Shown piece by piece: positions 6,170 to 60,899 of a stretch of DNA of 64,000 nucleotides (positions within the stretch are counted from its first letter, which is position 1; every line of letters begins with the position of its first letter). The position numbers and the translations under genes were made by a program. Under the pieces are notes generated by a model. The model was given only the letters and a program-made list of their open reading frames with translations, was not told where the DNA came from and made no database searches. The DNA lies in the IMG/VR virus record IMGVR_UViG_3300037418_003103, one strand, 5' to 3'. This stretch comes from a virus (taxonomy: Duplodnaviria > Heunggongvirae > Uroviricota > Caudoviricetes).

Positions 6170-7234
6170 TTAAGATAATACTAATTCATTCTTTCTTATA
6201 AGGATTCCTGCCTCATTAACAGCGAAGTTATAAGCGGCCATGTTCGCAGTATAAGCAGAACCCACCATCAGAGTTTCCTCGAAGCCATTTACTCTTTTTG
6301 GTTTGGCTCTGGTGTGTGTTGTCCAATGAGTAACACCTGAGAATAACCCGAACAAATTTTCTCCCTTATCAGCAATTTGATCATCAATACTTGCATACAG
6401 GGAATCCATGTGATTGATGGCCTTTGAAGTCTTCTTAGCTTGATCTTCCAAACTTGTAAATATTCTATCATGCCCAAGCACTTCTTTAACCATGGCATCT
6501 GCCAGATTCTTGGTAAGAGGCGTATTCATGAATTTTTGATAAACAAGCATTTGTTTCATGCTCTCAGATAAAGCTGTTTCAATGAGCACAGGCATTGTCT
6601 TTAGCTTTACTTCAAGCGTTGAAGTATGCCTGAACTTTGCCTCTCCTTTCTTATAGAATTTAAAGAATTGATTCTCACAGCTCATTACTTTATCTCCGAT
6701 ACCCACGCTAAGGCCAGTAGACCCATCATTGCTGTCAATGATAGTAACAAAGCGCTCGATTTCTTCATCTCCGATCTTATTAAAACCCTTTATGCCAAGT
6801 TGAAAAAATACCTTGCGGCCACCGTGCAGAGCACCTGCCTTTGTTACCCTGAGTGTATCGCCAAACTTTTCCATTCCACGCAACACCAATTCAACAACCT
6901 CGGCATTTTGAGATACAACATATCCCTCTTTACAGGTATTGAGTGCGTCGCCTGTTTTACTATTATAAAGACCGTAATAGGGTGAAGGAAACGCCTTGGC
7001 CCCCTCATTAGGAGTAATTGCTACCTTCCTAAGTCTTTTACGATCCTTGGCATCAGGATCATCTGAATTCTTAACCATTTTGAAAGTCACGTCATCCTGA
7101 TTAAAGCCAAACAGAACCCGCTTCTCAATAATAAAGTCAAGACCGTATTTTCTAAGCATCCGATTAACCTTATCTCTCAGGTGCTGATCCATACTAAGTT
7201 GAACATTATTAGCATCATTTGTTACAATTTCCAT
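6170..7234 (-). CDS. hypothetical protein (354 aa)
   Basis: long ORF; promoter-like motif 7255-7295 upstream. Confidence 0.6.
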   Translation of the reverse strand: MEIVTNDANNVQLSMDQHLRDKVNRMLRKYGLDFIIEKRVLFGFNQDDVTFKMVKNSDDPDAKDRKRLRKVAITPNEGAKAFPSPYYGLYNSKTGDALNTCKEGYVVSQNAEVVELVLRGMEKFGDTLRVTKAGALHGGRKVFFQLGIKGFNKIGDEEIERFVTIIDSNDGSTGLSVGIGDKVMSCENQFFKFYKKGEAKFRHTSTLEVKLKTMPVLIETALSESMKQMLVYQKFMNTPLTKNLADAMVKEVLGHDRIFTSLEDQAKKTSKAINHMDSLYASIDDQIADKGENLFGLFSGVTHWTTHTRAKPKRVNGFEETLMVGSAYTANMAAYNFAVNEAGILIRKNELVLS

Positions 7235-8688: not shown

Positions 8689-8931
8689 TTAAAAAATACT
8701 TCGTATAGAATCTCCACCAGGATAGCACTGGATTTTAGTCACTTGCAAGTCCCTTCCTATATGCTCATGAATTTTTTCCTCTGAATTATTTTTAAGGATG
8801 CTGGAGAGCATTTCTTCTGCTTCTTTTATTGTCAGGTAGTTCCTACGATAATTATTGGTGAAGGCCAGTCCTCTCACTCCATCCTGTTTAATGGCTGTAA
8901 TACTGTAGCGAGTATGAGTTTTTATTTTCAT
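8689..8931 (-). CDS. hypothetical protein
   Basis: 80-aa ORF; promoter at 8934-8975. Confidence 0.5.
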   Translation of the reverse strand: MKIKTHTRYSITAIKQDGVRGLAFTNNYRRNYLTIKEAEEMLSSILKNNSEEKIHEHIGRDLQVTKIQCYPGGDSIRSIF

Positions 8932-8933
8932 AA

Positions 8934-9017
8934 TGCAAATATAGGTTTATAAATTAAATCTACCAACTTTAATTAAAAATAAATTTGGTACTTTCAATAA
9001 TTAGTCTTATATTTGCA
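8934..9017. promoter_or_regulatory. divergent promoter pair (strand-switch point)
   Basis: minus-type motif 8934-8975 and its reverse complement aaatttggtactttcaataattagtcttatatttgca 8981-9017 on the plus strand. Confidence 0.55.
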
Positions 9018-9032
9018 TTAAATTAATCAGGC

Positions 9033-9155
9033 ATGATAATCGATAGAAAGATAATGATACATCAATCCCACGAATATTCACATAGTGTAAAAATAATTTG
9101 TCAGAATAAAAAAATAGTCTTATATTTGCATATCGAAAATAACAACTCAATATAA
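9033..9155 (+). CDS. possible small ORF (40 aa)
   Basis: ATG 16 nt after plus promoter; contains the second plus promoter copy (9105-9135) within its 3' end. Confidence 0.2.
   Translation: MIIDRKIMIHQSHEYSHSVKIICQNKKIVLYLHIENNNSI
9105..9135 (+). promoter_or_regulatory. plus-strand promoter copy
   Basis: aatagtcttatatttgcatatcg with TTTG upstream. Confidence 0.45.
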
Positions 9156-9156
9156 A

Positions 9157-9450
9157 TTGGTATCATCAGAATTTTTTAGTAGTTTTGCATCAGATAAAAA
9201 CCATATCTTAAAAATGACCAACTACCAATGCACCAGTCTGGAGGCTAAGGAAAATAATATTGATCTGGAGCTTGAAGCCAAAGGCGCTGGAAACTGGGAG
9301 GCATTCAGAAGTTCACTGGGTCTTAGTAGCAAAGAGACTGAAATCCTACAACTCTGGATACATAAGAAAAACCTTGAATTTTATCATATGGGAATCAATA
9401 ACTTCAGAAATAGGGTAAGAGAGCTTCTCTTGTCGCCTGACGTTCAGTAG
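9157..9450 (+). CDS. hypothetical protein
   Basis: plus-strand ORF; the ORF-track start at 9157 is TTG; first ATG in frame near 9214 (MTNYQC...). Confidence 0.45.
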   Translation: MVSSEFFSSFASDKNHILKMTNYQCTSLEAKENNIDLELEAKGAGNWEAFRSSLGLSSKETEILQLWIHKKNLEFYHMGINNFRNRVRELLLSPDVQ

Positions 9451-9454
9451 GTGT

Positions 9455-9474
9455 CACAAATGTGTACATTTTAG
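9455..9474. promoter_or_regulatory. palindromic motif CACAAATGTGTACATTTTAG (copy 1)
   Basis: AAATGT/ACATTT inverted repeat immediately after the stop of ORF 9157-9450; identical copy at 9823-9842. Confidence 0.3.
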
Positions 9475-9496
9475 AGATTAAATAAACCCATGTTTT

Positions 9497-9685
9497 ATGA
9501 TTAACATAGCAGCTGTCATCATCGTATTTTTTATCTTTGGTGCCATTGACTTTATACTTAATTTAAACAATGCGAACCCAGAGGATGAACTGCAATTGGT
9601 AGAGCATTTTTTAAAGCTGACATTTTGGTGCCTAGTAGCTATTTTAATACTCTTTATAGCGAGCCACGGAGTCTTAACACCTTAA
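9497..9685 (+). CDS. small two-TM membrane protein
   Basis: 62-aa hydrophobic ORF on the plus strand. Confidence 0.4.
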   Translation: MINIAAVIIVFFIFGAIDFILNLNNANPEDELQLVEHFLKLTFWCLVAILILFIASHGVLTP

Positions 9686-9822
9686 CCAGATCCAATAAGT
9701 TTACGATAACTACTGTTTTGTATCAAGGTGGCCAGGATAAACCTGACCTGTTTACTCTGGATAATAAGTATATATCCTGAGAGCACCCAGTTATAATTTT
9801 GCCCGCATTAAGCTCCCCACCA

Positions 9823-9842
9823 CACAAATGTGTACATTTTAG
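9823..9842. promoter_or_regulatory. palindromic motif CACAAATGTGTACATTTTAG (copy 2)
   Basis: exact repeat of 9455-9474. Confidence 0.3.
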
Positions 9843-10303
9843 GGTCTATTTTTCCTTAGTTTATCGTAGAGGGTAATACTGAGTGTAAGGAGTACAACAA
9901 TAGCGAAGACGCATCCTGCAGCTGTTCCCAGGTCTACCTGGCCAATTTCAATTAGATTCATAAGAATTGTATTTATTTTGCAAAGATATTAATTATTTTA
10001 TAATCAACCAAATATTATACAAACTTTCTTTTATGATTATATGTCTTCTTTACATAGGATGTTGTATTCATAGAGTTATGGTTGATAATCCTGTCTTCTA
10101 GTATACCCTTGGCTGGATTCTTCTTTATGATCTGAACAGCCTTCTTCTTGCTGGTAAAGTTCTTATACATGAGCAATTTTTAATAAACATACTCAAATAT
10201 TTACAAAGAAACAACTTATGGCTGGAAATGAAAATATTATACTTGGCCAAAAGTAGGTAAAAATATGAGTTATGGCCCTGAATAAAAAAGAAGCGGGCTG
10301 TAT

Positions 10304-10366
10304 TACTTCTTTTTGCCTGTAGGAAATTTAAACTAAGAAATTAGTTTAAGGTTGATATTCAGTGAC
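10304..10366 (-). repeat. 62-bp repeat R1 with 9-bp hairpin TTAAACTAA/TTAGTTTAA and TTGATAnTCA
   Basis: tacttctttttgcctgtaggaaatttaaactaagaaattagtttaaggttgatattca. Confidence 0.6.
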
Positions 10367-10376
10367 TTATGACTTG

Positions 10377-10604
10377 CTACCATTCAATCAAGTATTCCAT
10401 ATACTCATAAGCAAAACTAACGTCAAAACCATCTTTGATCAGCATATCCTTTACCTCAGGAGTTATATGAGTTAATCTTAAGTTGAACCTACCAATCTTG
10501 GCATATTCACGTATCTTATTAGCAACGTCTAGGTACTCGGCATTGATTACCTTAGGACGGCTCTCCTTGGTAAGCTTATGTATTTCTTCTTTACTTATTC
10601 TCAT
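10377..10604 (-). CDS. hypothetical protein
   Basis: 75-aa ORF; ATG 4 nt downstream of repeat R2. Confidence 0.5.
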   Translation of the reverse strand: MRISKEEIHKLTKESRPKVINAEYLDVANKIREYAKIGRFNLRLTHITPEVKDMLIKDGFDVSFAYEYMEYLIEW

Positions 10605-11300: not shown

Positions 11301-11552
11301 TTGGAGAGTGAGGGGGTTAACCTTACTCACTTTACTAATACAATCAAATACTGCGCAGTATTTGATGCTTAAAAACCAATCAAAGTGTACTTCCCTTGTC
11401 ATTTTTACCTGTTCCGTCAAACAGAATGACTTATACTATACTGCACATCTAACTATTAGGCCACAAATATACTACTAATATTTTAAAAAACCAAAACAAT
11501 TCTAAATAACACAATTTCTGCATGCTAACACTCCCTGTGTTATTGAGCAAAA

Positions 11553-11664
11553 AATAAGACTATTTTTCAAAAAATAGTCTTAAAAATGTAAAAAAGCACC
11601 AAATATTATTTAGTCTTATTTTTGAGAGGGGTGTAAAATTAGTCTTAAATTTACAAAAAATTTG
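11553..11664. promoter_or_regulatory. cluster of four TAAGACTA/TAGTCTTA promoter-core motifs in an ORF-free region
   Basis: aataagactatttttcaaaaaatagtcttaaaaatg (palindromic pair), tagtcttatttttg, tagtcttaaattta; no ORF over 60 aa on either strand across 11460-12000. Confidence 0.4.
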
Positions 11665-12003
11665 ACTGAAGCATAATATTCACTTGCATAAATGGCTGTT
11701 TTTACATGTATTCAATTTTCATATCTAGCAGCATTAAACATTTTTTTACATGCCTCCAGTAAGCTAAATCCTGATGTAAAGAGACTTCTTATTACTCATT
11801 CCCAACACAAATTCCTACTTCTTCCCACTTTCCGTACCTCTCTACCACCTCTTTTTCTCTGCTCCTGATACTTCTAGCTCATTTTCCTCTAAGTACCTCT
11901 AGAAAGTCCATACGTGCTAATACAGGGTACAAAAGGTACACTTGCTTAATACCTGCCAGTCTGAGCAAGCTGTCCGTAATGGGGCTTAAAATGCGAAATA
12001 AGA

Positions 12004-12273
12004 CTACTCTCCTGATCTCTTACTCCCTCTCTTCTTCCTGGCCAGTCCCCTCTTTATTCTCCTGCTCCGCTCCTCCCGTATTGCCCCCATTGCCATCTCC
12101 GTCGGCCTAGCAAGGCCCAGCATAAGTTCATCTAGAGGCAGGCCCTCTCTTCTTGCATGTAGGTAGAGGAATATCCCCACCTTCCCCAGAGCCTCTCTAC
12201 CATCAAACTCCAGTAATTCCCTAAGTCCCTGATATAACTTCTCTTGTTCTTTATTTAATCCCTTGTTCTTCAT
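12004..12273 (-). CDS. hypothetical protein, basic C-terminus (GC-rich island)
   Basis: 89-aa ORF; local GC about 48% against about 33% for the window. Confidence 0.5.
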   Translation of the reverse strand: MKNKGLNKEQEKLYQGLRELLEFDGREALGKVGIFLYLHARREGLPLDELMLGLARPTEMAMGAIREERSRRIKRGLARKKRGSKRSGE

Positions 12274-21309: not shown

Positions 21310-22044
21310 TTAAATATTTAATAAGTTATTAATGTAACTTCCATCATTTTCATTACAACTATATAATTTAGGTACAATATGGCCATCTACGCATGTATGC
21401 ATTTTGTAATTAAAGTCTCTTTTATCATATAGATCTTCAACATCTCTATTGCACTTTTCACATAAAATAAGTGGTCTACCAAGCCATCCCCAGTACCAGT
21501 AATGCAAGCACTCCTTATCTTTTGATATATTTAATGGTACAATTTGACCAGATATTCCACAAGTCTTCAGAGTCTCGAAATTCTCCTTTCCGTATGCCAC
21601 CAGAACTGATGGAGCCCCAGCATTGGCGCTGGCCACCTCACCGCTTACGTGATGAAAATAAAGTCTACCCTCCAGGAATAGCAGCCCATACGCCTTTTTC
21701 CATACTTGTTCAAAGAACATCTTTGTCTCTGTCCTTGCAAATATAAGCGCAATTCCGTTGCCATGCTCAGCTAATTTATTCAGCCAGCTTGCAGCGATCA
21801 ATCCATAAGGTGGATTGCACCAGACTCTTCCTATCCACTTCTTACTAAGTCCATCATCCTCTATAGTAAAATGAGTCTTGGCTGTTGGCCAGGGCCTCTG
21901 AATTGGAGAACAAGGATCTAAATCAAATGGCCCTAATTTTTCAAGGATATGTGGTGGAGTCAGCCACTCATCCTTCATCATTTTTGCGGATTGATGAGAG
22001 CCCATTCCCTTCCTTCCGTCGTGTTCTTCTTGGTTTTCTTGCAT
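21310..22044 (-). CDS. DNA N6-adenine methyltransferase, phage Dam family, with C-terminal Cys-rich extension
   Basis: WLTPP...FDLDPCS...WCNPPYG...IALIFARTETKMF matches the phage Dam family (PF05869-like); NPPY catalytic motif. Confidence 0.75.
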   Translation of the reverse strand: MQENQEEHDGRKGMGSHQSAKMMKDEWLTPPHILEKLGPFDLDPCSPIQRPWPTAKTHFTIEDDGLSKKWIGRVWCNPPYGLIAASWLNKLAEHGNGIALIFARTETKMFFEQVWKKAYGLLFLEGRLYFHHVSGEVASANAGAPSVLVAYGKENFETLKTCGISGQIVPLNISKDKECLHYWYWGWLGRPLILCEKCNRDVEDLYDKRDFNYKMHTCVDGHIVPKLYSCNENDGSYINNLLNI

Positions 22045-24245: not shown

Positions 24246-24584
24246 TTAATTTGTTAAAGAAATAAATTCAACACTACTTATTTTACTACTCTTAAAATCA
24301 TCCACATATTTTTTATAAGCTGCATCAATGCCCTTGTTAACTTCTTCAAGAGAGTAGAAGTCATAAACTATATGAAAACTACTTAAAAAATATACACGAT
24401 TTTCAATCAGTCCTGCCCACCCTAGAGTATATGTTTGACGGAATGGGATTCCAAAGATTACTGATTTTCTAATAACCACCTCAGCACGATATCTTTCTAC
24501 GCCATCAAGCATAGTTATTTTTGTAATATTCTTTTTAATTATTACGGGAATTTCGTTTTTATTCATACATTTCTTTTTGCACAT
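24246..24584 (-). CDS. hypothetical protein
   Basis: 112-aa ORF. Confidence 0.45.
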   Translation of the reverse strand: MCKKKCMNKNEIPVIIKKNITKITMLDGVERYRAEVVIRKSVIFGIPFRQTYTLGWAGLIENRVYFLSSFHIVYDFYSLEEVNKGIDAAYKKYVDDFKSSKISSVEFISLTN

Positions 24585-25131
24585 AAGTTGGATGATAACA
24601 TAATTCTCCGTTTATAATTTGGGCTGGAGCGGTGTAACGATGGGCAGTCTCTTTTTCTGTACTCATTATATGCGATACGCTCCATCCAATTGATTTCAAA
24701 TAATCTGAGATCATAGAACGATGACACTTCCACCAGACAGCTTCTGAGCACATATAAGCTGCACGCCGTTCTAATGCGATTCTTTCAAGAACTCTTATTC
24801 CTTCTTTAAAATCGTCAGTCTCCATATAATCAGCATAAGCCCTAAAAGATGGATGGCGCCAAAGTGTATTTTTTGAACTTGGATTTGTTTTTCTTCTGCC
24901 TCCCAGATCCTTCAAATGAATATATTCAATATTCTTATTCGGAAAATATACTTCTAAATTCTCTTTATTAAAATGAGGATAACGATTGGAGCCTGGATAA
25001 CTTCTAACATCAACAAGAACTTCTATGCTAAATGATTTAAGTATTTGTTCTATCTCTTGTATGCTTCTTGTAGAGTGGCCTATTGTCCATATGCTATTAG
25101 ATGAATTATCTTTCATATTACAAATGTACAT
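24559..25131 (-). CDS. DUF488 family protein
   Basis: IWTIGHSTRS...VLVDVRSYPGSNRYPHFNKENL matches the DUF488 N-terminal signature. Confidence 0.6.
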   Translation of the reverse strand: MYICNMKDNSSNSIWTIGHSTRSIQEIEQILKSFSIEVLVDVRSYPGSNRYPHFNKENLEVYFPNKNIEYIHLKDLGGRRKTNPSSKNTLWRHPSFRAYADYMETDDFKEGIRVLERIALERRAAYMCSEAVWWKCHRSMISDYLKSIGWSVSHIMSTEKETAHRYTAPAQIINGELCYHPTYVQKEMYE

Positions 25132-27545: not shown

Positions 27546-28166
27546 TTATTTATTATTTTCTTGATTCCAGCCATAATTACGCACCGTATTCTTAAAGATG
27601 CTCACAAGCTGATCTGATAAATGAAATCTGTTCTTATTAATATCAATACTTTTATCAATACTTCCTCCTTTGGTTCTCTCAGTTGCTGCCTTCCAATCCA
27701 TAAAGAGTTCAACAATATCCAGGAGATCCATCCCATTTATTCCAGGAATGAAATCAATGGCTGTTAATTCTGTCTCGTAGATAGCGTGTCCGCCAGAACA
27801 ATCCAAACAGAACCTAGTTCCAGTGTCCTTTGCAACCCATGTTTCAGATGTCTTCTTTTCTCTTTTACACATGGCACAATCCCATCTATCATAGTATTGT
27901 GGATGATGCGAATTATTATCGTAGTGATGTTGTAGTGCAACATTTAACTCATCAAGGCTTTCTTTATATTCAGGACTTCCATATTCCAGATTCTTTAAAA
28001 TTGGTGTCAACCTATCAAATTCGGACTTTTCAGGTTCCTGTAACTTAGAGGCATCATGGCAAGCTGCCCTATCCATTAAATCTTTAGAAAATCTAAGGAG
28101 AAGCTCATTAACTCTCTTTATATGTAAAAGAGTGTCGGCAGTACTATCGTATTTTGTATCAATCAT
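27546..28166 (-). CDS. conserved phage protein with HDxSK and His-rich motifs (DUF5662-like?)
   Basis: 206-aa ORF; ACHDASKL...HHYDNNSHHP; Cys pairs. Confidence 0.35.
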   Translation of the reverse strand: MIDTKYDSTADTLLHIKRVNELLLRFSKDLMDRAACHDASKLQEPEKSEFDRLTPILKNLEYGSPEYKESLDELNVALQHHYDNNSHHPQYYDRWDCAMCKREKKTSETWVAKDTGTRFCLDCSGGHAIYETELTAIDFIPGINGMDLLDIVELFMDWKAATERTKGGSIDKSIDINKNRFHLSDQLVSIFKNTVRNYGWNQENNK

Positions 28167-37512: not shown

Positions 37513-37965
37513 TTATTTAAATTTAAGATTCTGTTTTTTATTGTAAGCCAGACGTAAACCATTAATGAATGCTTTAGTTTTATCCTTCCATAGATTGGCA
37601 ACGTCATCCAGCATAAGTGGTAATAATTCTTCAAGCGCATCAGCAATCTTCTTACACTTAGTGTAAGAAATATATCCATCACAATCAGAATGTCTAAGAA
37701 GTTCATACAGCGGATGCTCTATGAGTAAATCCCATTTTATTGGGAGTCGTTTTTTAAGATGTATAATGCCCCACATTTGGAGTTCATCATCATTAGGAAA
37801 TGTGTGTTCTAAAAGAGTAAAAGGGTTATTAATTCCATCTTCATAATAAAATCCCTCCATTAATTCAAGGGGTGGAAATCCTGCTAATTCAGCTATTTTA
37901 GTCCTCCAAGCCATAAAAGAACCGTAAGATCCGTGCCATGCATCATGTGTAATGTCCAACCCCAT
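37513..37965 (-). CDS. hypothetical protein
   Basis: 150-aa ORF. Confidence 0.55.
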   Translation of the reverse strand: MGLDITHDAWHGSYGSFMAWRTKIAELAGFPPLELMEGFYYEDGINNPFTLLEHTFPNDDELQMWGIIHLKKRLPIKWDLLIEHPLYELLRHSDCDGYISYTKCKKIADALEELLPLMLDDVANLWKDKTKAFINGLRLAYNKKQNLKFK

Positions 37966-38025: not shown

Positions 38026-38469
38026 TTATTTTAATTTTTCAAGACTCATAAAATAATCAGGTAAGATTATCCCCTCTCTTGAAGGATGTGGATCATGAGC
38101 AAGCAATCCGTTCTTATAAATTACACTATGTCTAAAGCCGCGAGGACTCTCGCCAAAAACAATGTAGTATTTATTTCTACACTCTTTCATCCACTTATAT
38201 CTTTGTTTTTCTTTTTTTCCATAATTCTTTTCATGGAAAACCCTGAATCTATCATCTGATGATAGATCATATCCCAGGTTGGTTAGAAAGCAACACATAA
38301 CTTCAATCCAATAAGACCCCTCAATACCAAATAAAACCTCTACATTTGGAACTTGGGGTAGGGGTAACTCAATTAGTGAAGCGATTGAGGCGGCAAAACA
38401 GTTACCTCTTACAACAACCTCATCCTTTGAGTTCTTGACAACTACTTTTGTCTGTGTAACTGGAATCAT
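38026..38469 (-). CDS. possible papain-fold cysteine peptidase/amidase
   Basis: 147-aa ORF; GNCFAASIASL (Cys) with downstream FRHSVIY and AHDPHP His motifs in an NlpC/P60- or C39-like order; weak. Confidence 0.3.
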   Translation of the reverse strand: MIPVTQTKVVVKNSKDEVVVRGNCFAASIASLIELPLPQVPNVEVLFGIEGSYWIEVMCCFLTNLGYDLSSDDRFRVFHEKNYGKKEKQRYKWMKECRNKYYIVFGESPRGFRHSVIYKNGLLAHDPHPSREGIILPDYFMSLEKLK

Positions 38470-38538
38470 TTAATTATGAGTTTAATTTTATCATAAGATT
38501 TTTTTATTCGGATTGTAAATTAATTAACATCACATAAT

Positions 38539-39060
38539 TTATAATTTTTTAAATTTCACAACAGTTAACTCCATGTCTTTTAATTCTTTTTGAAAAATAC
38601 CTCTTACTATTTCCCACGACCCTCCAGCTAATCCGCAACCAATTAGTGGTAAACCTATACGCAGGCCTTTAAAAGTATAATTTATTTTTCGCATGCATAG
38701 AGCAATCGCTTCATAATCTACAGGAGGCCCATAGAGAGAGCCATAAAAAAACTGGGTATAGCAATTCACAACAAATAAAGAATAAAGCAGCGTATCACCT
38801 TCATCAGGATAACGTTCAAATTTTTTATCCCAACTAGAGTACCATAACTTTTCAAAATCAATTTGTCCTAGCTTATTGATGTCTCCAACAAATTTTTTAT
38901 CTTCCAATTTAAAGTTATTACAACCAAAAGCGGATGCCATTTGAGGAGCGATTCCAGCACCCATCTGACAGAAACAATTAGCTCCATGGGCTACAACATT
39001 GAATTCTCCATTTTTAGCCCTTACGATTAAATCACCCTCCACTTCTTGATATTTATTCAT
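38539..39060 (-). CDS. macro domain protein (ADP-ribose binding/hydrolase)
   Basis: GDLIVRAKNGEFNVVAHGANC...GAGIA and LPLIGCGLAGG match macro-domain motifs. Confidence 0.65.
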   Translation of the reverse strand: MNKYQEVEGDLIVRAKNGEFNVVAHGANCFCQMGAGIAPQMASAFGCNNFKLEDKKFVGDINKLGQIDFEKLWYSSWDKKFERYPDEGDTLLYSLFVVNCYTQFFYGSLYGPPVDYEAIALCMRKINYTFKGLRIGLPLIGCGLAGGSWEIVRGIFQKELKDMELTVVKFKKL

Positions 39061-39062
39061 AC

Positions 39063-39815
39063 TTATAATATTTTAACTGTTATTTTTTTATCTTCTATAA
39101 CAATATACTCCTTGGTTTTGTTACCTAGTGTATCAATAAAGTAATATCTTCCACCAGTGGCTCTACCATTTATATCAATTTTTTCAACACCTGTATGTCC
39201 TACAATCTGGATATACTTATTCCTTAGAGTTATTTTATTGGCTTTCATCAAACTCCTAGGCCTTATCCAAATTGGAGACTGTTCAACATCATCTCCATAT
39301 GCATTAGTACCATTAAACATAAAGGCTAATGGTTTATACCTCCATAAATCATTTATGTACTCTTCCAGAGGCTCATCCTCATATCCAACCTCCTGTAGCC
39401 AGACACTGCTCACACCAGCGTGTGTAAACAAGTAATTGTCATGTACATGGCACATTTGAAGATGCTGCTTATTATCTTCTAGTATCTGAGTGATAAATGC
39501 TGCGAAATCAACTTGAAAGCCAGATGTTTGGGTGTACTGTTTAAGCCCGTTAAAATAATGGAAATCATGATTTCCAATAAGCATAACGACTTTTATACCC
39601 TCATTCTCGGCCTGTATTTTCCATTCAATAATTTCTTTAAAATTATTGACCTGCACATGACCTGGAAGGTAAGGAATAATTTTTTTTAATTGCTTATCAT
39701 AAATAGCTGAGTCAAAGTAGTCTCCCAGAAATATAACCTTATCAGGCTTCTCGATTTCAACCATAAGCTTCCAAACATCTCTACCATGAATATCAGGAAT
39801 TGGCAAAATAGTCAT
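39063..39815 (-). CDS. Ser/Thr protein phosphatase-like metallophosphoesterase (lambda PPase type)
   Basis: PDIHGRD (GDxHG), GDYFD (GDxxDRG-like), IGNHD (GNHE) motifs. Confidence 0.7.
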   Translation of the reverse strand: MTILPIPDIHGRDVWKLMVEIEKPDKVIFLGDYFDSAIYDKQLKKIIPYLPGHVQVNNFKEIIEWKIQAENEGIKVVMLIGNHDFHYFNGLKQYTQTSGFQVDFAAFITQILEDNKQHLQMCHVHDNYLFTHAGVSSVWLQEVGYEDEPLEEYINDLWRYKPLAFMFNGTNAYGDDVEQSPIWIRPRSLMKANKITLRNKYIQIVGHTGVEKIDINGRATGGRYYFIDTLGNKTKEYIVIEDKKITVKIL

Positions 39816-39994
39816 GTTAAAAAATTGTATGTAAGGGTATCAAAGAAAATATGAAGCTTACGCTTCCCCAAACGACAATAACAGCCATAAATCATTCCAA
39901 CGTTATCTCTATTAGAAAAAATACTAAAATTTTTAAACTGATACTTAGATTCCACAGTTAACCAGTCATTAATAAAATGAATATCTGAAGGCAT
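39812..39994 (-). CDS. hypothetical small protein
   Basis: 60-aa ORF; ATGA overlap with the phosphatase start. Confidence 0.3.
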   Translation of the reverse strand: MPSDIHFINDWLTVESKYQFKNFSIFSNRDNVGMIYGCYCRLGKRKLHIFFDTLTYNFLT

Positions 39995-46242: not shown

Positions 46243-46846
46243 ACTTAAATTCTTTAATAATGAGATGATTGTTTCTATCTACTTTTGGTAGCAGATAAGG
46301 CTTATATTTATCCCACAGTTCATTCGCAGCGTTCCAATCAAATACTTTATCAAATGTTTCATCACTCATGAAATCTTTTGTGGTAGTCATAGCCACCAAA
46401 GCTGATGTAGGATATTTCTTGAGGGATTTTAAAATTCTTTTTTCAATTTCTCCTACCGATAATTTAGATTGTTTAGCTTGACCAAAAGATATTCTAATTG
46501 CATTCTTCATATCTTCTTCCGTATATCCTCCTGCTTTGTAACCTGCCATAAAATCTCTTCTTACAGAATCTTTGTAAATTGAGTCTTGTGTATAGTTGAT
46601 ATTCTTGTAATGAATATCAAATAGCTTTTCAACAGTATCATTTATTTCAAACAATGGAAGATTACTATCTTTTAAAGATTTAATACCTGTATGAGCTATG
46701 ATTTCAAATAGTTTATCTTCCTTCAATGAACCCTTAAACACTGGATTTGTTATTAGTCTTGCATCATCAGAAGGATTTTCTGGAATTTTAACTATTACAG
46801 CCCCACCATCAACCTGAATAATGGGATATTCTTTATATTGTTCCAT
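46235..46846 (-). CDS. hypothetical protein
   Basis: 203-aa ORF. Confidence 0.55.
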   Translation of the reverse strand: MEQYKEYPIIQVDGGAVIVKIPENPSDDARLITNPVFKGSLKEDKLFEIIAHTGIKSLKDSNLPLFEINDTVEKLFDIHYKNINYTQDSIYKDSVRRDFMAGYKAGGYTEEDMKNAIRISFGQAKQSKLSVGEIEKRILKSLKKYPTSALVAMTTTKDFMSDETFDKVFDWNAANELWDKYKPYLLPKVDRNNHLIIKEFKYE

Positions 46847-47369
46847 AATTAAAATTTTTAAAAGATTTAAATAAAGAAATTATGTTCTCTTTCCCAACAG
46901 GGTTCATGCTATGCACAAAATATTCTGGTAAGGTTTTGTTATGTTCTATAACATAATCAATCAACCATTGTGCACAATGATAGCCTGTTTTATTCATATC
47001 CACTTCAAAACTATCACCCTTATAATTTAATACACCGTTCTGCATGTTGGAATGGTAGTGCCCATCTGCCAAGTCATGGTCAAAGGATATAACATTAGGA
47101 ATTCCGTTATCGGTAATATACTTAACGAAAGCTGGATAATTCCTTACAATAACCCACTCATACACCCTGTACTGTTTTCTTAACTCAACTGGATTTATAT
47201 AGTTTCCAACCTCATAAGGCTGTCTAATATCATCCAAAAACAATCTATACATCGTAATACTTTTTATCTTATTTCCAAATTGATTTGGGTTCAGATGGAA
47301 TAATATCGGTATCGTCAGTCTTATAACTACCCCGCATCCATTTATATTTACCATCATATACTGCCTCAC
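46833..47369 (-). CDS. hypothetical protein
   Basis: 178-aa ORF. Confidence 0.5.
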   Translation of the reverse strand: MRQYMMVNINGCGVVIRLTIPILFHLNPNQFGNKIKSITMYRLFLDDIRQPYEVGNYINPVELRKQYRVYEWVIVRNYPAFVKYITDNGIPNVISFDHDLADGHYHSNMQNGVLNYKGDSFEVDMNKTGYHCAQWLIDYVIEHNKTLPEYFVHSMNPVGKENIISLFKSFKNFNYGTI

Positions 47370-51988: not shown

Positions 51989-52110
51989 TGGGGAAGGGTG
52001 GAATCGAACCACCGACGCGGCCATTAAAAGTGGAGTAAGTTAAAATATGTTATCACAGAGATAAAATCATCTCAACTAATTACCTGCTCTACCAACTGAG
52101 CTACTTCCCC
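51989..52110 (-). tRNA. tRNA-Lys(TTT) interrupted by a 49-nt insertion (52034-52082) in the 5' strand of the anticodon stem
   Basis: acceptor GGGGAAG/CTTCCCC, D-arm GCTC-AGTTGGTA-GAGC, T-arm GGTGG-TTCGATT-CCACC; removing the insert gives a canonical 73-nt tRNA with anticodon stem GGCCA/TGGCC and loop CTTTTAA. Confidence 0.65.
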
Positions 52111-59978: not shown

Positions 59979-60899
59979 TTATTTGCTTAATTGTAACATG
60001 ATTCCGCCGCTTCCGCTTTGAACGCTTGGAAGTACTCCATTCCATTTATCAATCTTCAAGTATTGAATGTATAAATCAGTTAATTGAGCTTGTTTAACTT
60101 TTGTTTCCTGAGCCTCACCTCCAGCTCTGATAACTCTTGCTGAACTATCAGCTCTTGCGACGGCAATTTTTCTTTGTCCATCAGCAATAGCAACAAGTTT
60201 TTGATTTTCTGCAACCTGAACGTCCTGAATAGCTTTGGTCTTTGCTTCAATACTTGCTTGTAGTGATGGTGGCGGAATTATATTGGTTCTTAACTGAGAA
60301 ATGATAAACCATTTGGAGAGCCTTTTATTCGCCTCTTGAACGATATTTCCTTCAAATCTCTCTCTTTCGTTAAAGATACTATCAACACTCCACTTATTTG
60401 CCACGTCATTGACTGCGCCTACAATGGCATTTTGAAGCCACCCCTGTTCAATCCCCTTAATATCAAGTCTAAGATTAAGGAACATGTCACCAACATCACC
60501 TGGCTTAAGTGAGTAATTAAATTTAGGGTGAATAGTAGCTGAAAACCCTCCCTTTGTGATTACTTGTTGTTGAGGATACTCAATAGTTTGTTGATAAATT
60601 GGAAATTCGTATAGAATAGCAACCCATGAATTAATGACCACCCATCCAGTTTTATACTCTAATTTAGATACGCCTCTATCGCCGCCAGTAAGATTTACTT
60701 TAATACCGACATGACCCGCATCAACACGCTCTAATTTAAGTGGATTAATTAAAGAAATAAGAAGTCCAATAATAAGTATTCCAAATCCCTTCCAGAATAA
60801 GGGTGACGCAGCAAACGGTGCCTTTATTTTATCTGAATTGTTTTTGAAAAAAATAAATGTTGCAAAAAGTGTAACAACTGCTAAAAAAATAGAAATCAT
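59979..60899 (-). CDS. SPFH/band-7 (HflK/C, prohibitin-like) membrane protein
   Basis: N-terminal TM; C-terminal AENQKLVAIADGQRKIAVARADSSARVIRAGGEAQ is an HflK/C-like helical repeat. Confidence 0.6.
   Translation of the reverse strand: MISIFLAVVTLFATFIFFKNNSDKIKAPFAASPLFWKGFGILIIGLLISLINPLKLERVDAGHVGIKVNLTGGDRGVSKLEYKTGWVVINSWVAILYEFPIYQQTIEYPQQQVITKGGFSATIHPKFNYSLKPGDVGDMFLNLRLDIKGIEQGWLQNAIVGAVNDVANKWSVDSIFNERERFEGNIVQEANKRLSKWFIISQLRTNIIPPPSLQASIEAKTKAIQDVQVAENQKLVAIADGQRKIAVARADSSARVIRAGGEAQETKVKQAQLTDLYIQYLKIDKWNGVLPSVQSGSGGIMLQLSK

Follow-up and report, generated by a model that had tools for sequence, protein, structure and literature searches.

We analysed a 64,000-nucleotide stretch of DNA from a virus of the class Caudoviricetes (IMG/VR record IMGVR_UViG_3300037418_003103; henceforth the window), in which a gene for a macro-domain protein lies between genes for a metallophosphatase and a papain-fold protein. 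A preliminary description, made from the sequence alone, had placed these genes together in one operon. Its coordinates and gene descriptions are borne out by the list of open reading frames (ORFs), which has all of them on the minus strand. In transcription order, a 60-residue ORF (39994-39812) comes first and overlaps the start codon of the 250-residue phosphatase gene (39815-39063) by 4 nt. The gene of the 173-residue macro protein (39060-38539) follows after a gap of 2 nt, and a spacer of 69 nt (38470-38538) separates it from the gene of the 147-residue papain-fold protein (38469-38026). Homologues of each of the latter three genes number hundreds to thousands in metagenomes at 45-65% identity, and gene calling on independent assemblies of this phage finds the same genes, the 60-residue ORF included; the genes are thus real. 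The 60-residue ORF had no match in Pfam, PHROG, NCBIfam or PADLOC, and no homologue among 222 related viral loci (80 centered on phosphatase, 80 on macro and 62 on 147-residue homologues, with flanks of up to 5 kb).

The trio is part of a long array of short genes. The window holds 137 ORFs of at least 55 residues, nearly all of them small minus-strand genes (84% coding), and only 15 reach 200 residues or more; its G+C content is uniform at about 33%. Gaps of at most 2 nt separate 29 of the 136 adjacent gene pairs (21%), and 38% of pairs are at most 10 nt apart. Because a fifth of the pairs are equally tight, the 2-nt spacing between the phosphatase and macro genes is not special. Proteins of the window are also on record on contigs of up to 345,454 bp, and the nearest cultured relatives, found through a 46%-identical macro protein, are Cellulophaga phages. 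The window is without structural genes and resembles an accessory-gene region in a jumbo phage.

In a scan for promoters and terminators, the spacers between the four genes were free of terminator-like sites; the sole minus-strand match (39866-39853) is weak and lies inside the 60-residue ORF. The spacer between the macro and 147-residue genes contains one sigma-70-like match (38519-38490, 10 of 12 positions). Such matches are no commoner in the region than chance would give (33 against 29.9 expected from shuffled sequence, with a consensus that may not suit the host), so this site carries little weight. Co-transcription of the genes is likely, and for the trio probable simply because the array is so tightly packed, yet it says little about function.

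A macro protein of the phage Tk.4/Adpp family

The macro protein scores 18 bits with Pfam PF01661, below the cut-off of 22, and matches phrog_335 at 3.3e-38. A profile of 34 homologues run against the Protein Data Bank (PDB) retrieved BT1257 (1.6e-13), TARG1 (1.7e-8), SCO6735 (6.7e-8), Poa1p (1.6e-3) and DarG (7.6e-3). With these matches to solved macrodomains, from 1.6e-13 to 6.7e-8 for the best three, and with catalytic residues present in the predicted protein, the earlier macro-domain assignment stands. Its closest characterized relative is Adpp of Vibrio phage Gary (KNV71_gp137), to which it is 32% identical across 155 aligned positions (residues 7-152 of the window protein; pairwise E 5e-18). 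A database-wide tblastn search matched the Adpp orthologues of phages Cody, Ceto and Chloris at E about 1e-10, Cody gp176 being 98.1% identical to Gary Adpp, and T4 Tk.4 is 30.5% identical to the window protein (E 2e-12). The window protein and Gary Adpp have in common the motifs AHxxNCFCxMGxGIAP, VxNxYxQ, DYxA and GLPLIGCGLAGGxW, and both MGAGIA and GLPLIGCGLAGG are conserved among the 34 homologues. Like Adpp, with which the names T4 Tk.4, phrog_335 'phosphatase' and yeast Poa1p-like are associated, it is a single-domain macro protein of about 160-175 residues, and its close relatives occupy the same Adps-macro-Namat position as Adpp; Gary Adpp, by contrast, is without some 25 residues that form a variable insertion in the window protein (about 69-94). 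On these sequence comparisons, we assign the window protein to the phage Tk.4/Adpp family of the ALC1-like class. Macro homologues are found in 2424 GenBank phage records, including T4 and its relatives, in which tk.4 is usually annotated as a phosphatase, and a macro domain has been reported in 56% of jumbo phages (Iyer et al., 2022; PMC9503650).

Inspection of the family alignment showed N28, Q103, D115 and G141 to be invariant and H25 to be present in at least 90% of the 34 homologues. The catalytic residues Lys84 and Asp125 of TARG1 are both absent: Q103 aligns with the Gln of the BT1257 sequence MIGQHG, and A145 lies in the motif GCGLAGG where TARG1 has GCGLD. Nine residues separate Q103 from P113 in the macro protein, whereas in TARG1 six lie between K84 and P91. 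The window protein thus has the features of the Gln-type subclass of SCO6735 and Bt_1257 (5E3B, 2FG1), its best PDB matches: a Gln at the position of TARG1 K84, an HxxN motif, no counterpart of TARG1 D125, a long loop after the Gln, and GCGLAGG. Its N-terminal half is closer to TARG1 than to BT1257. Residues were mapped onto SCO6735 by way of BT1257, which is 54% identical to it (PMC9411070), and Lys34 and Lys89 of SCO6735 could not be mapped onto the macro protein. In both SCO6735 and Bt_1257 the residue at the Gln position, Gln85, is essential (PMC9411070). The window protein differs from SCO6735 in being phage-encoded and in belonging to a family whose context is NAD+ salvage.

This context is apparent from the 80 macro loci, which are the closest in IMG/VR. 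A gene resembling phosphoribosyl pyrophosphate synthetase (PRS-like) lies upstream on the same strand in 47 of them, and a gene resembling nicotinamide phosphoribosyltransferase (NAMPT-like) shares the strand of the macro gene in 42, with a downstream position in 33 of these. NADAR is found in 14 loci, and at least one of the three in 54 of the 80, or in 44 of the 65 loci whose two flanks each reach 3 kb or more. The two closest homologues on long contigs (64% and 60% identity) show the order PRS-like, macro, NADAR and also lie near an NAPRTase/NAMPT-type gene, SIR2 and an NMNAT-like gene. In the locus of the 64%-identical homologue (L227, 1-10516; Logan SRR14689454 contig), a dense NAD/ADPR cluster, the genes encode, in sequence, an NAMPT-like protein, a UvrD helicase, a PRS-like protein, the macro protein, an 82-residue protein, NADAR, SIR2 and an NMNAT-like protein.

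Vibrio phages Cody and Gary have the homologue between genes annotated 'ribose-phosphate pyrophosphokinase' (Adps) and 'nicotinamide phosphoribosyltransferase' (Namat). In Gary, Osterman et al. described this arrangement as NARP1-AP: Adpp turns ADP-ribose-1''-phosphate (ADPR-1''-phosphate), the product of the RES-domain defence aRES, into ADP-ribose (ADPR), from which Adps and Namat rebuild NAD+, and both the activity and the anti-aRES function of Adpp are published (bioRxiv 10.64898/2026.01.28.702374). Upstream of Adps-Adpp-Namat in Gary (NC_055913.1, 103069-110498) lie genes for a NinI-like PPP phosphatase, an Rnl1-type RNA ligase, an AAA_33 kinase and a Metallophos_2 phosphoesterase, so that an RNA-repair-like set abuts NARP1-AP.

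Within the window, Pfam searches of 128 ORFs and jackhmmer searches with locus-derived queries revealed neither Tpt1 nor an RNA ligase, and none of the NARP1 genes. The window macro gene is therefore an orphan, as are about one third of its close relatives and T4 Tk.4. About 7 kb away, on the minus strand (46833-47357), lies a gene for a cREC_REC protein (PF20274, 4e-21), flanked by genes for two proteins of 200-240 residues that have no Pfam match. The cREC family is predicted to act on cyclic phosphates of ADPR or RNA (Iyer et al.; PMC9503650).

The phosphatase and the papain-fold protein

PPP-like phosphatases have been known in phages since lambda NinI. The window phosphatase matches Pfam Metallophos (PF00149, 1.7e-10) and, weakly, the NinI-like phrog_246 (3.7e-6). 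No solved structure in the PDB was significantly matched by its sequence, and the best hit of the family profile was RLPH2 at E 0.13; a structure model was thus needed for classification. The AlphaFold2 (AF2) model, built on 33 homologues, has a mean predicted local distance difference test score (pLDDT) of 92.7. Its nearest fold neighbour is the cold-active tyrosine phosphatase of Shewanella (CAPTPase, 1V73; PPP-like) with a score of 19.1, followed by ApaH (16.1), PP5 (15.6), calcineurin (15.2), RLPH2 and PP1 (15.0 each), the phosphatase domain of PnkP (14.7) and lambda phosphatase (13.6), while nucleases of the Mre11/SbcD type score about 9.

Ten residues are invariant in the 33-homologue alignment: D8, H10, D32, D35, N82, H83, H132, R185 (in IWIR), H207 and D228 (in FIDT). 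These comprise the six metal ligands (D8, H10, D32, N82, H132 and H207) and the catalytic His-Asp pair (H83 and D35). Since the ligands and the pair are kept, the enzyme should be active, and we classify it from the model as a two-metal PPP-like hydrolase of the Shelph/ApaH/lambda phosphatase group with an intact active site and predicted competence. The preliminary description had called it a lambda-type Ser/Thr phosphatase, and this holds in part. With lambda phosphatase (NinI, 1G5B) and the bacterial-like PPPs it shares DxHG, GDxxD, GNHD, H132, IWxR, GHT and IDT; the C-terminal motifs IWIR185, VGHT and FIDT are lambda-like. Its own motifs read PDIHG, GDYFDS and GNHD, short of the full GDxHG/GDxVDRG/GNHE signature. 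In particular, the phosphate-binding Arg that lambda phosphatase and the PPPs carry in GDxxDRG is replaced by Ser36, and none of the 33 homologues has an Arg there, whereas the second Arg (IWIR185) is present; the nearest folds, moreover, are not that of lambda phosphatase. With this Arg missing, and with a tyrosine phosphatase and ApaH as the closest structures, the substrate could be a phosphoprotein, a nucleotide of the Np4N type or an RNA end. The NinI-like phosphatase of Vibrio phage Gary is just 22% identical to the window enzyme (E 0.09).

Directly after GDYFDS, about 19 extra residues, AIYDKQLKKIIPYLPGH (window 39651-39707, residues about 37-55), are inserted in the window phosphatase; nearly all homologues are without them, and confidence in their modelled position is low (pLDDT 69-81).

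Relatives of the phosphatase are common in environmental phages, being encoded in at least 437 IMG/VR stretches. Clustering the neighbours in the 80 phosphatase loci yielded no conserved partner: every neighbour family is limited to 19 loci or fewer, thymidylate synthase is found beside the phosphatase in 14-15, and Pfam searches of the ten commonest neighbour families gave a single match, which fell below its threshold (ANG-1, 21.8 bits; cut-off 28.5). The window gene at 37513-37965 was considered as a copy of a recurring 157-residue phosphatase neighbour and rejected, the two being non-homologous. Likewise, a mycobacteriophage metallophosphoesterase nuclease and the anti-Thoeris genes of Migulavirinae were judged not relevant to the three families. 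In one related locus (L002, on a 164-kb contig of JGI 3300071516), a gene for an Acb3-family protein (PF25187; 4496-5218) lies about 0.8 kb upstream of the phosphatase copy; RNA ligase, thymidylate synthase, dUTPase and DNA polymerase B are encoded in the same region.

Papain-fold proteins without a known role are common in phages. The 147-residue protein belongs to phrog_5845 (5.9e-27). It has no Pfam family, no match to C39 at E up to 1 and no PDB sequence match, and its relatives in BFVD and among GenBank phages are all unannotated, save one labelled 'cysteine protease'. Its AF2 model (pLDDT 95.9) has a papain-like fold that is structurally closest to C39 peptidase domains. Among 51 homologues Q6, T7, K8, C24, H79, H114, D126 and H128 are invariant; in the model C24 caps the helix 24-33, and H114 and D126 lie on adjacent hairpin strands (113-119 and 122-125). 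The earlier reading of a papain-fold-like protein with a Cys...His pair thus agrees with the predicted fold and with the invariance of C24, H114 and D126. We consider the protein to be probably a Cys-His-Asp hydrolase of a C39-like kind, either a peptidase or an isopeptidase; membership of C39 proper is not established. With the leader peptidase domains of ComA and PCAT1 it shares a Cys at a helix N-terminus and a downstream His and Asp. These C39 domains, however, belong to ABC transporters and have a Gln six residues before the Cys, whereas the phage protein stands alone without a transporter, is without that Gln and, unlike C39, has a strongly conserved N-terminal segment, MIPVTQTK.

Distribution of the three families and the function of the macro protein

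To determine how often the three families occur together, we searched all 222 loci with the three family profiles. None of the 80 phosphatase loci contains a macro or 147-residue homologue, and none of the 80 macro loci a 147-residue homologue. The phosphatase occurs in one macro locus (L116), and two of the 62 loci of the 147-residue family show a marginal match (E about 2e-5) to the phosphatase or the macro protein. The 21 window genes around the trio do not recur in the 222 loci either, apart from one that is found in a single locus and two that are found in two. In GenBank the macro, phosphatase and 147-residue families occur in 2424, 20 and 66 phage records, largely from different phage groups, and all three families are mainly viral. 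A 164-kb relative has the phosphatase without the macro and 147-residue genes, a 167-kb relative has the 147-residue gene without the other two, and in one 167-kb phage about 10 kb separates the phosphatase gene from the macro gene, which has NARP1 beside it. A conserved module of macro protein, phosphatase and peptidase was therefore rejected, as one pair and two marginal hits are all that the 222 loci hold. The proposal that the trio forms a host-modification or defence-reversal module is not supported, given this independent distribution and the tight spacing common throughout the window. In L116 (2665-7589; IMGVR_UViG_3300020047_006961) the genes form an extended operon of the NARP1-AP kind and encode, in sequence, a phosphatase of the window's family, a PRS-like protein, a 137-residue protein, the macro protein, a 144-residue protein and an NAMPT-like protein; the 137- and 144-residue proteins are paralogous to each other (E about 1e-33), match no Pfam family and recur in seven of the 80 macro loci.

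We favour the view, with a probability of roughly 55%, that there is no dedicated module and that the three genes encode independently acquired accessory enzymes, the macro protein being a hydrolase of the Adpp type. The trio would then be a set of independent accessory genes within the long same-strand array of a large phage. From its homology and family context, the macro protein would bind an ADP-ribose derivative and hydrolyse a bond at the 1'' position, most likely stripping ADPR-1''-phosphate of its phosphate to give free ADP-ribose. ADPR-1''-phosphate arises when enzymes of the RES type phosphorolyse NAD+, and also as a by-product when RNA loses a 2'-phosphate. In the two thirds of relatives that have such neighbours, the freed ADP-ribose would feed Adps and Namat, so that NAD+ is rebuilt and an NAD+-depleting defence is defeated. 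The orphan window protein may act alone or together with NARP1 genes in another part of the genome. The general idea of the preliminary description, that the macro protein takes part in counter-defence through ADP-ribose chemistry, remains reasonable, with the family now narrowed to Tk.4/Adpp.

Several observations weigh against this view. Identity to the tested Adpp is just 32%, and the best PDB matches, BT1257, SCO6735 and TARG1, which rank ahead of Poa1p, remove ADP-ribose from DNA or protein. Neither the 64-kb window nor the 6.6 kb or so that adjoin its low end yielded Adps, Namat, NADAR, sirtuin or ADP-ribosyltransferase genes, so the usual partners of the macro protein are not shown for this phage. 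In L116 the phosphatase homologue lies directly upstream of the Adps-macro-Namat operon, roughly one macro locus in ten has another metallophosphoesterase within 5 kb, and in Gary the NinI-like phosphatase is about 4.5 kb upstream of Adpp; a functional link between phosphoesterases and the macro neighbourhood may thus exist. Nor does a lack of conservation prove that the enzymes do not cooperate in this one phage.

The main alternative is that the macro protein acts chiefly on DNA, removing ADP-ribose from thymidine in phage single-stranded DNA and so countering DarT on its own, in the manner of SCO6735, DarG2 or the chimallivirus protein AdfM. SCO6735, which with BT1257 is its best solved relative by sequence, removes ADP-ribose from thymidine in DNA and from Glu and Asp in proteins and protects against DarT; the invariant Gln103 falls at its Gln85 (TARG1 K84, DarG K80), and H25 and N28 at its H24 and N27 (PMC9411070). 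AdfM provides a precedent for a phage macrodomain directed against DarT (PMC13309987), and the window copy does not lie beside NARP1. On the other hand, the conserved context of the family is NAD+ reconstitution rather than DNA metabolism, and its tested member is an ADPR-1''-phosphate phosphatase. Membership of DarG was rejected: the window protein is a single domain of 173 residues that scores 18.3 bits with the NCBIfam model antitoxin_DarG (cut-off 250), its PADLOC match to DarG is marginal (1e-4 over 36 residues), and the catalytic Lys of DarG (K80) and AdfM (K78) is absent, the invariant Gln103 standing in its place (equivalence from PMC9411070). We therefore regard a chiefly anti-DarT role as unlikely, although, because the window protein has the same Gln-type site as SCO6735, it could plausibly remove ADP-ribose from DNA or protein as a second activity.

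Cooperation between the phosphatase and the macro protein would offer another route to ADP-ribose. The phosphatase might open ADPR 1''-2'' cyclic phosphate or remove a phosphate such as that of 2'-phospho-ADPR. Loss of the 1''-phosphate, through the macro protein, would follow, the ADP-ribose going to NAD+ reconstitution or the steps serving to dispose of RNA-repair by-products. The 2-nt gap and common strand of the two genes are consistent with such a pathway, as are the order of genes in L116, the 167-kb phage with both genes and NARP1, the analogous, non-homologous phosphoesterases near NARP1-AP in Gary and the cREC cyclic-phosphate-processing gene 7 kb away in the window. Within 5 kb of the phosphatase, RNA ligase is found in 8 and an AAA_33 kinase in 5 of 80 loci, a weak enrichment, and the absence of the GDxxDRG Arg is unusual for a protein phosphatase. 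Calcineurin-like enzymes have also been proposed to process ADPr>P in neighbourhoods of this kind (Iyer et al., 2022; PMC9503650). We know of no member of the window phosphatase family that has been tested on any ADPR derivative, however, and its fold neighbours are mainly protein phosphatases and ApaH. Adjacency, moreover, is seen in one of 160 relevant loci, and none of Tpt1/KptA, RNA ligase, Adps and Namat was found in the window. On balance this two-step pathway is possible but thinly supported, and slightly less probable than an anti-DarT role.

Concerted action of all three enzymes on host or defence proteins, with the macro protein removing ADP-ribose, the phosphatase removing phosphate and the peptidase cleaving, appears improbable. 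The genes do lie on one strand at tight spacing with no terminator-like site between them, encode three intact predicted active sites and come from mainly viral families. No pair of them, however, is conserved together, tight spacing is the rule in the window, Pfam and PADLOC searches of the window found no kinase, ADP-ribosyltransferase or defence-related partner, and the conserved partners of the macro family are other genes. It would be just as surprising if the orphan macro protein and the Arg-less phosphatase formed an undescribed extension of phage NAD+ reconstitution that clears several phosphorylated ADP-ribose products (ADPR-1''-phosphate from RES together with ADPR>P or 2'-phospho-ADPR), with L116 as a second instance and the C39-like hydrolase as a separate new anti-defence protease.

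Independent acquisition of the three enzymes thus remains our preferred explanation. Each gene belongs to a known kind, the macro family and its function having been published in 2026, and their grouping is not a system. The result is mainly a correct annotation, which places an unannotated macro gene of a jumbo phage in the recently characterized Adpp family. About one third of close Adpp-like genes, the window's included, sit away from NARP1, which raises a modest question about the role of orphans such as T4 Tk.4. The phosphatase family and the C39-like phrog_5845, both without a characterized member, are reasonable candidates for screening. The evidence points to no new kind of system, and what interest remains lies in these two families and in the orphan Adpp-like genes.

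Other features of the window

Few ORFs of the window match Pfam. They include genes for DUF488 (24559-25131, 1.5e-30), a Dam-type methyltransferase (21310-22044), DUF932 (6170-7234), DUF5662 (27546-28166) and SPFH/Band_7 (59979-60899) proteins, and matches to NT5C, HTH_3 and YdaS_toxin are also present. Two stretches, 8931-10377 and 11402-12004, are without a sizeable minus-strand ORF. In the first, which contains short plus-strand ORFs, the strong negative GC skew is locally lost (-0.02 against about -0.17), and neither an Rfam match nor a tandem repeat was found there.

Three tRNA-like genes on the minus strand (51989-52110, 1530-1618 and 1227-1355) score above the Rfam gathering threshold at 44-49 bits and are abnormally long (122, 89 and 129 nt, respectively). 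Each shows one anomaly: in one, 39 nt stand where the anticodon loop should have its core; in another, the anticodon arm is 13 nt too long and ARAGORN gives a 2-nt anticodon; and in another, about 57 nt are inserted into the variable arm. The 122-nt gene folds better than all of 200 shuffled sequences (z -3.2), and the three may be interrupted or intron-bearing phage tRNAs.

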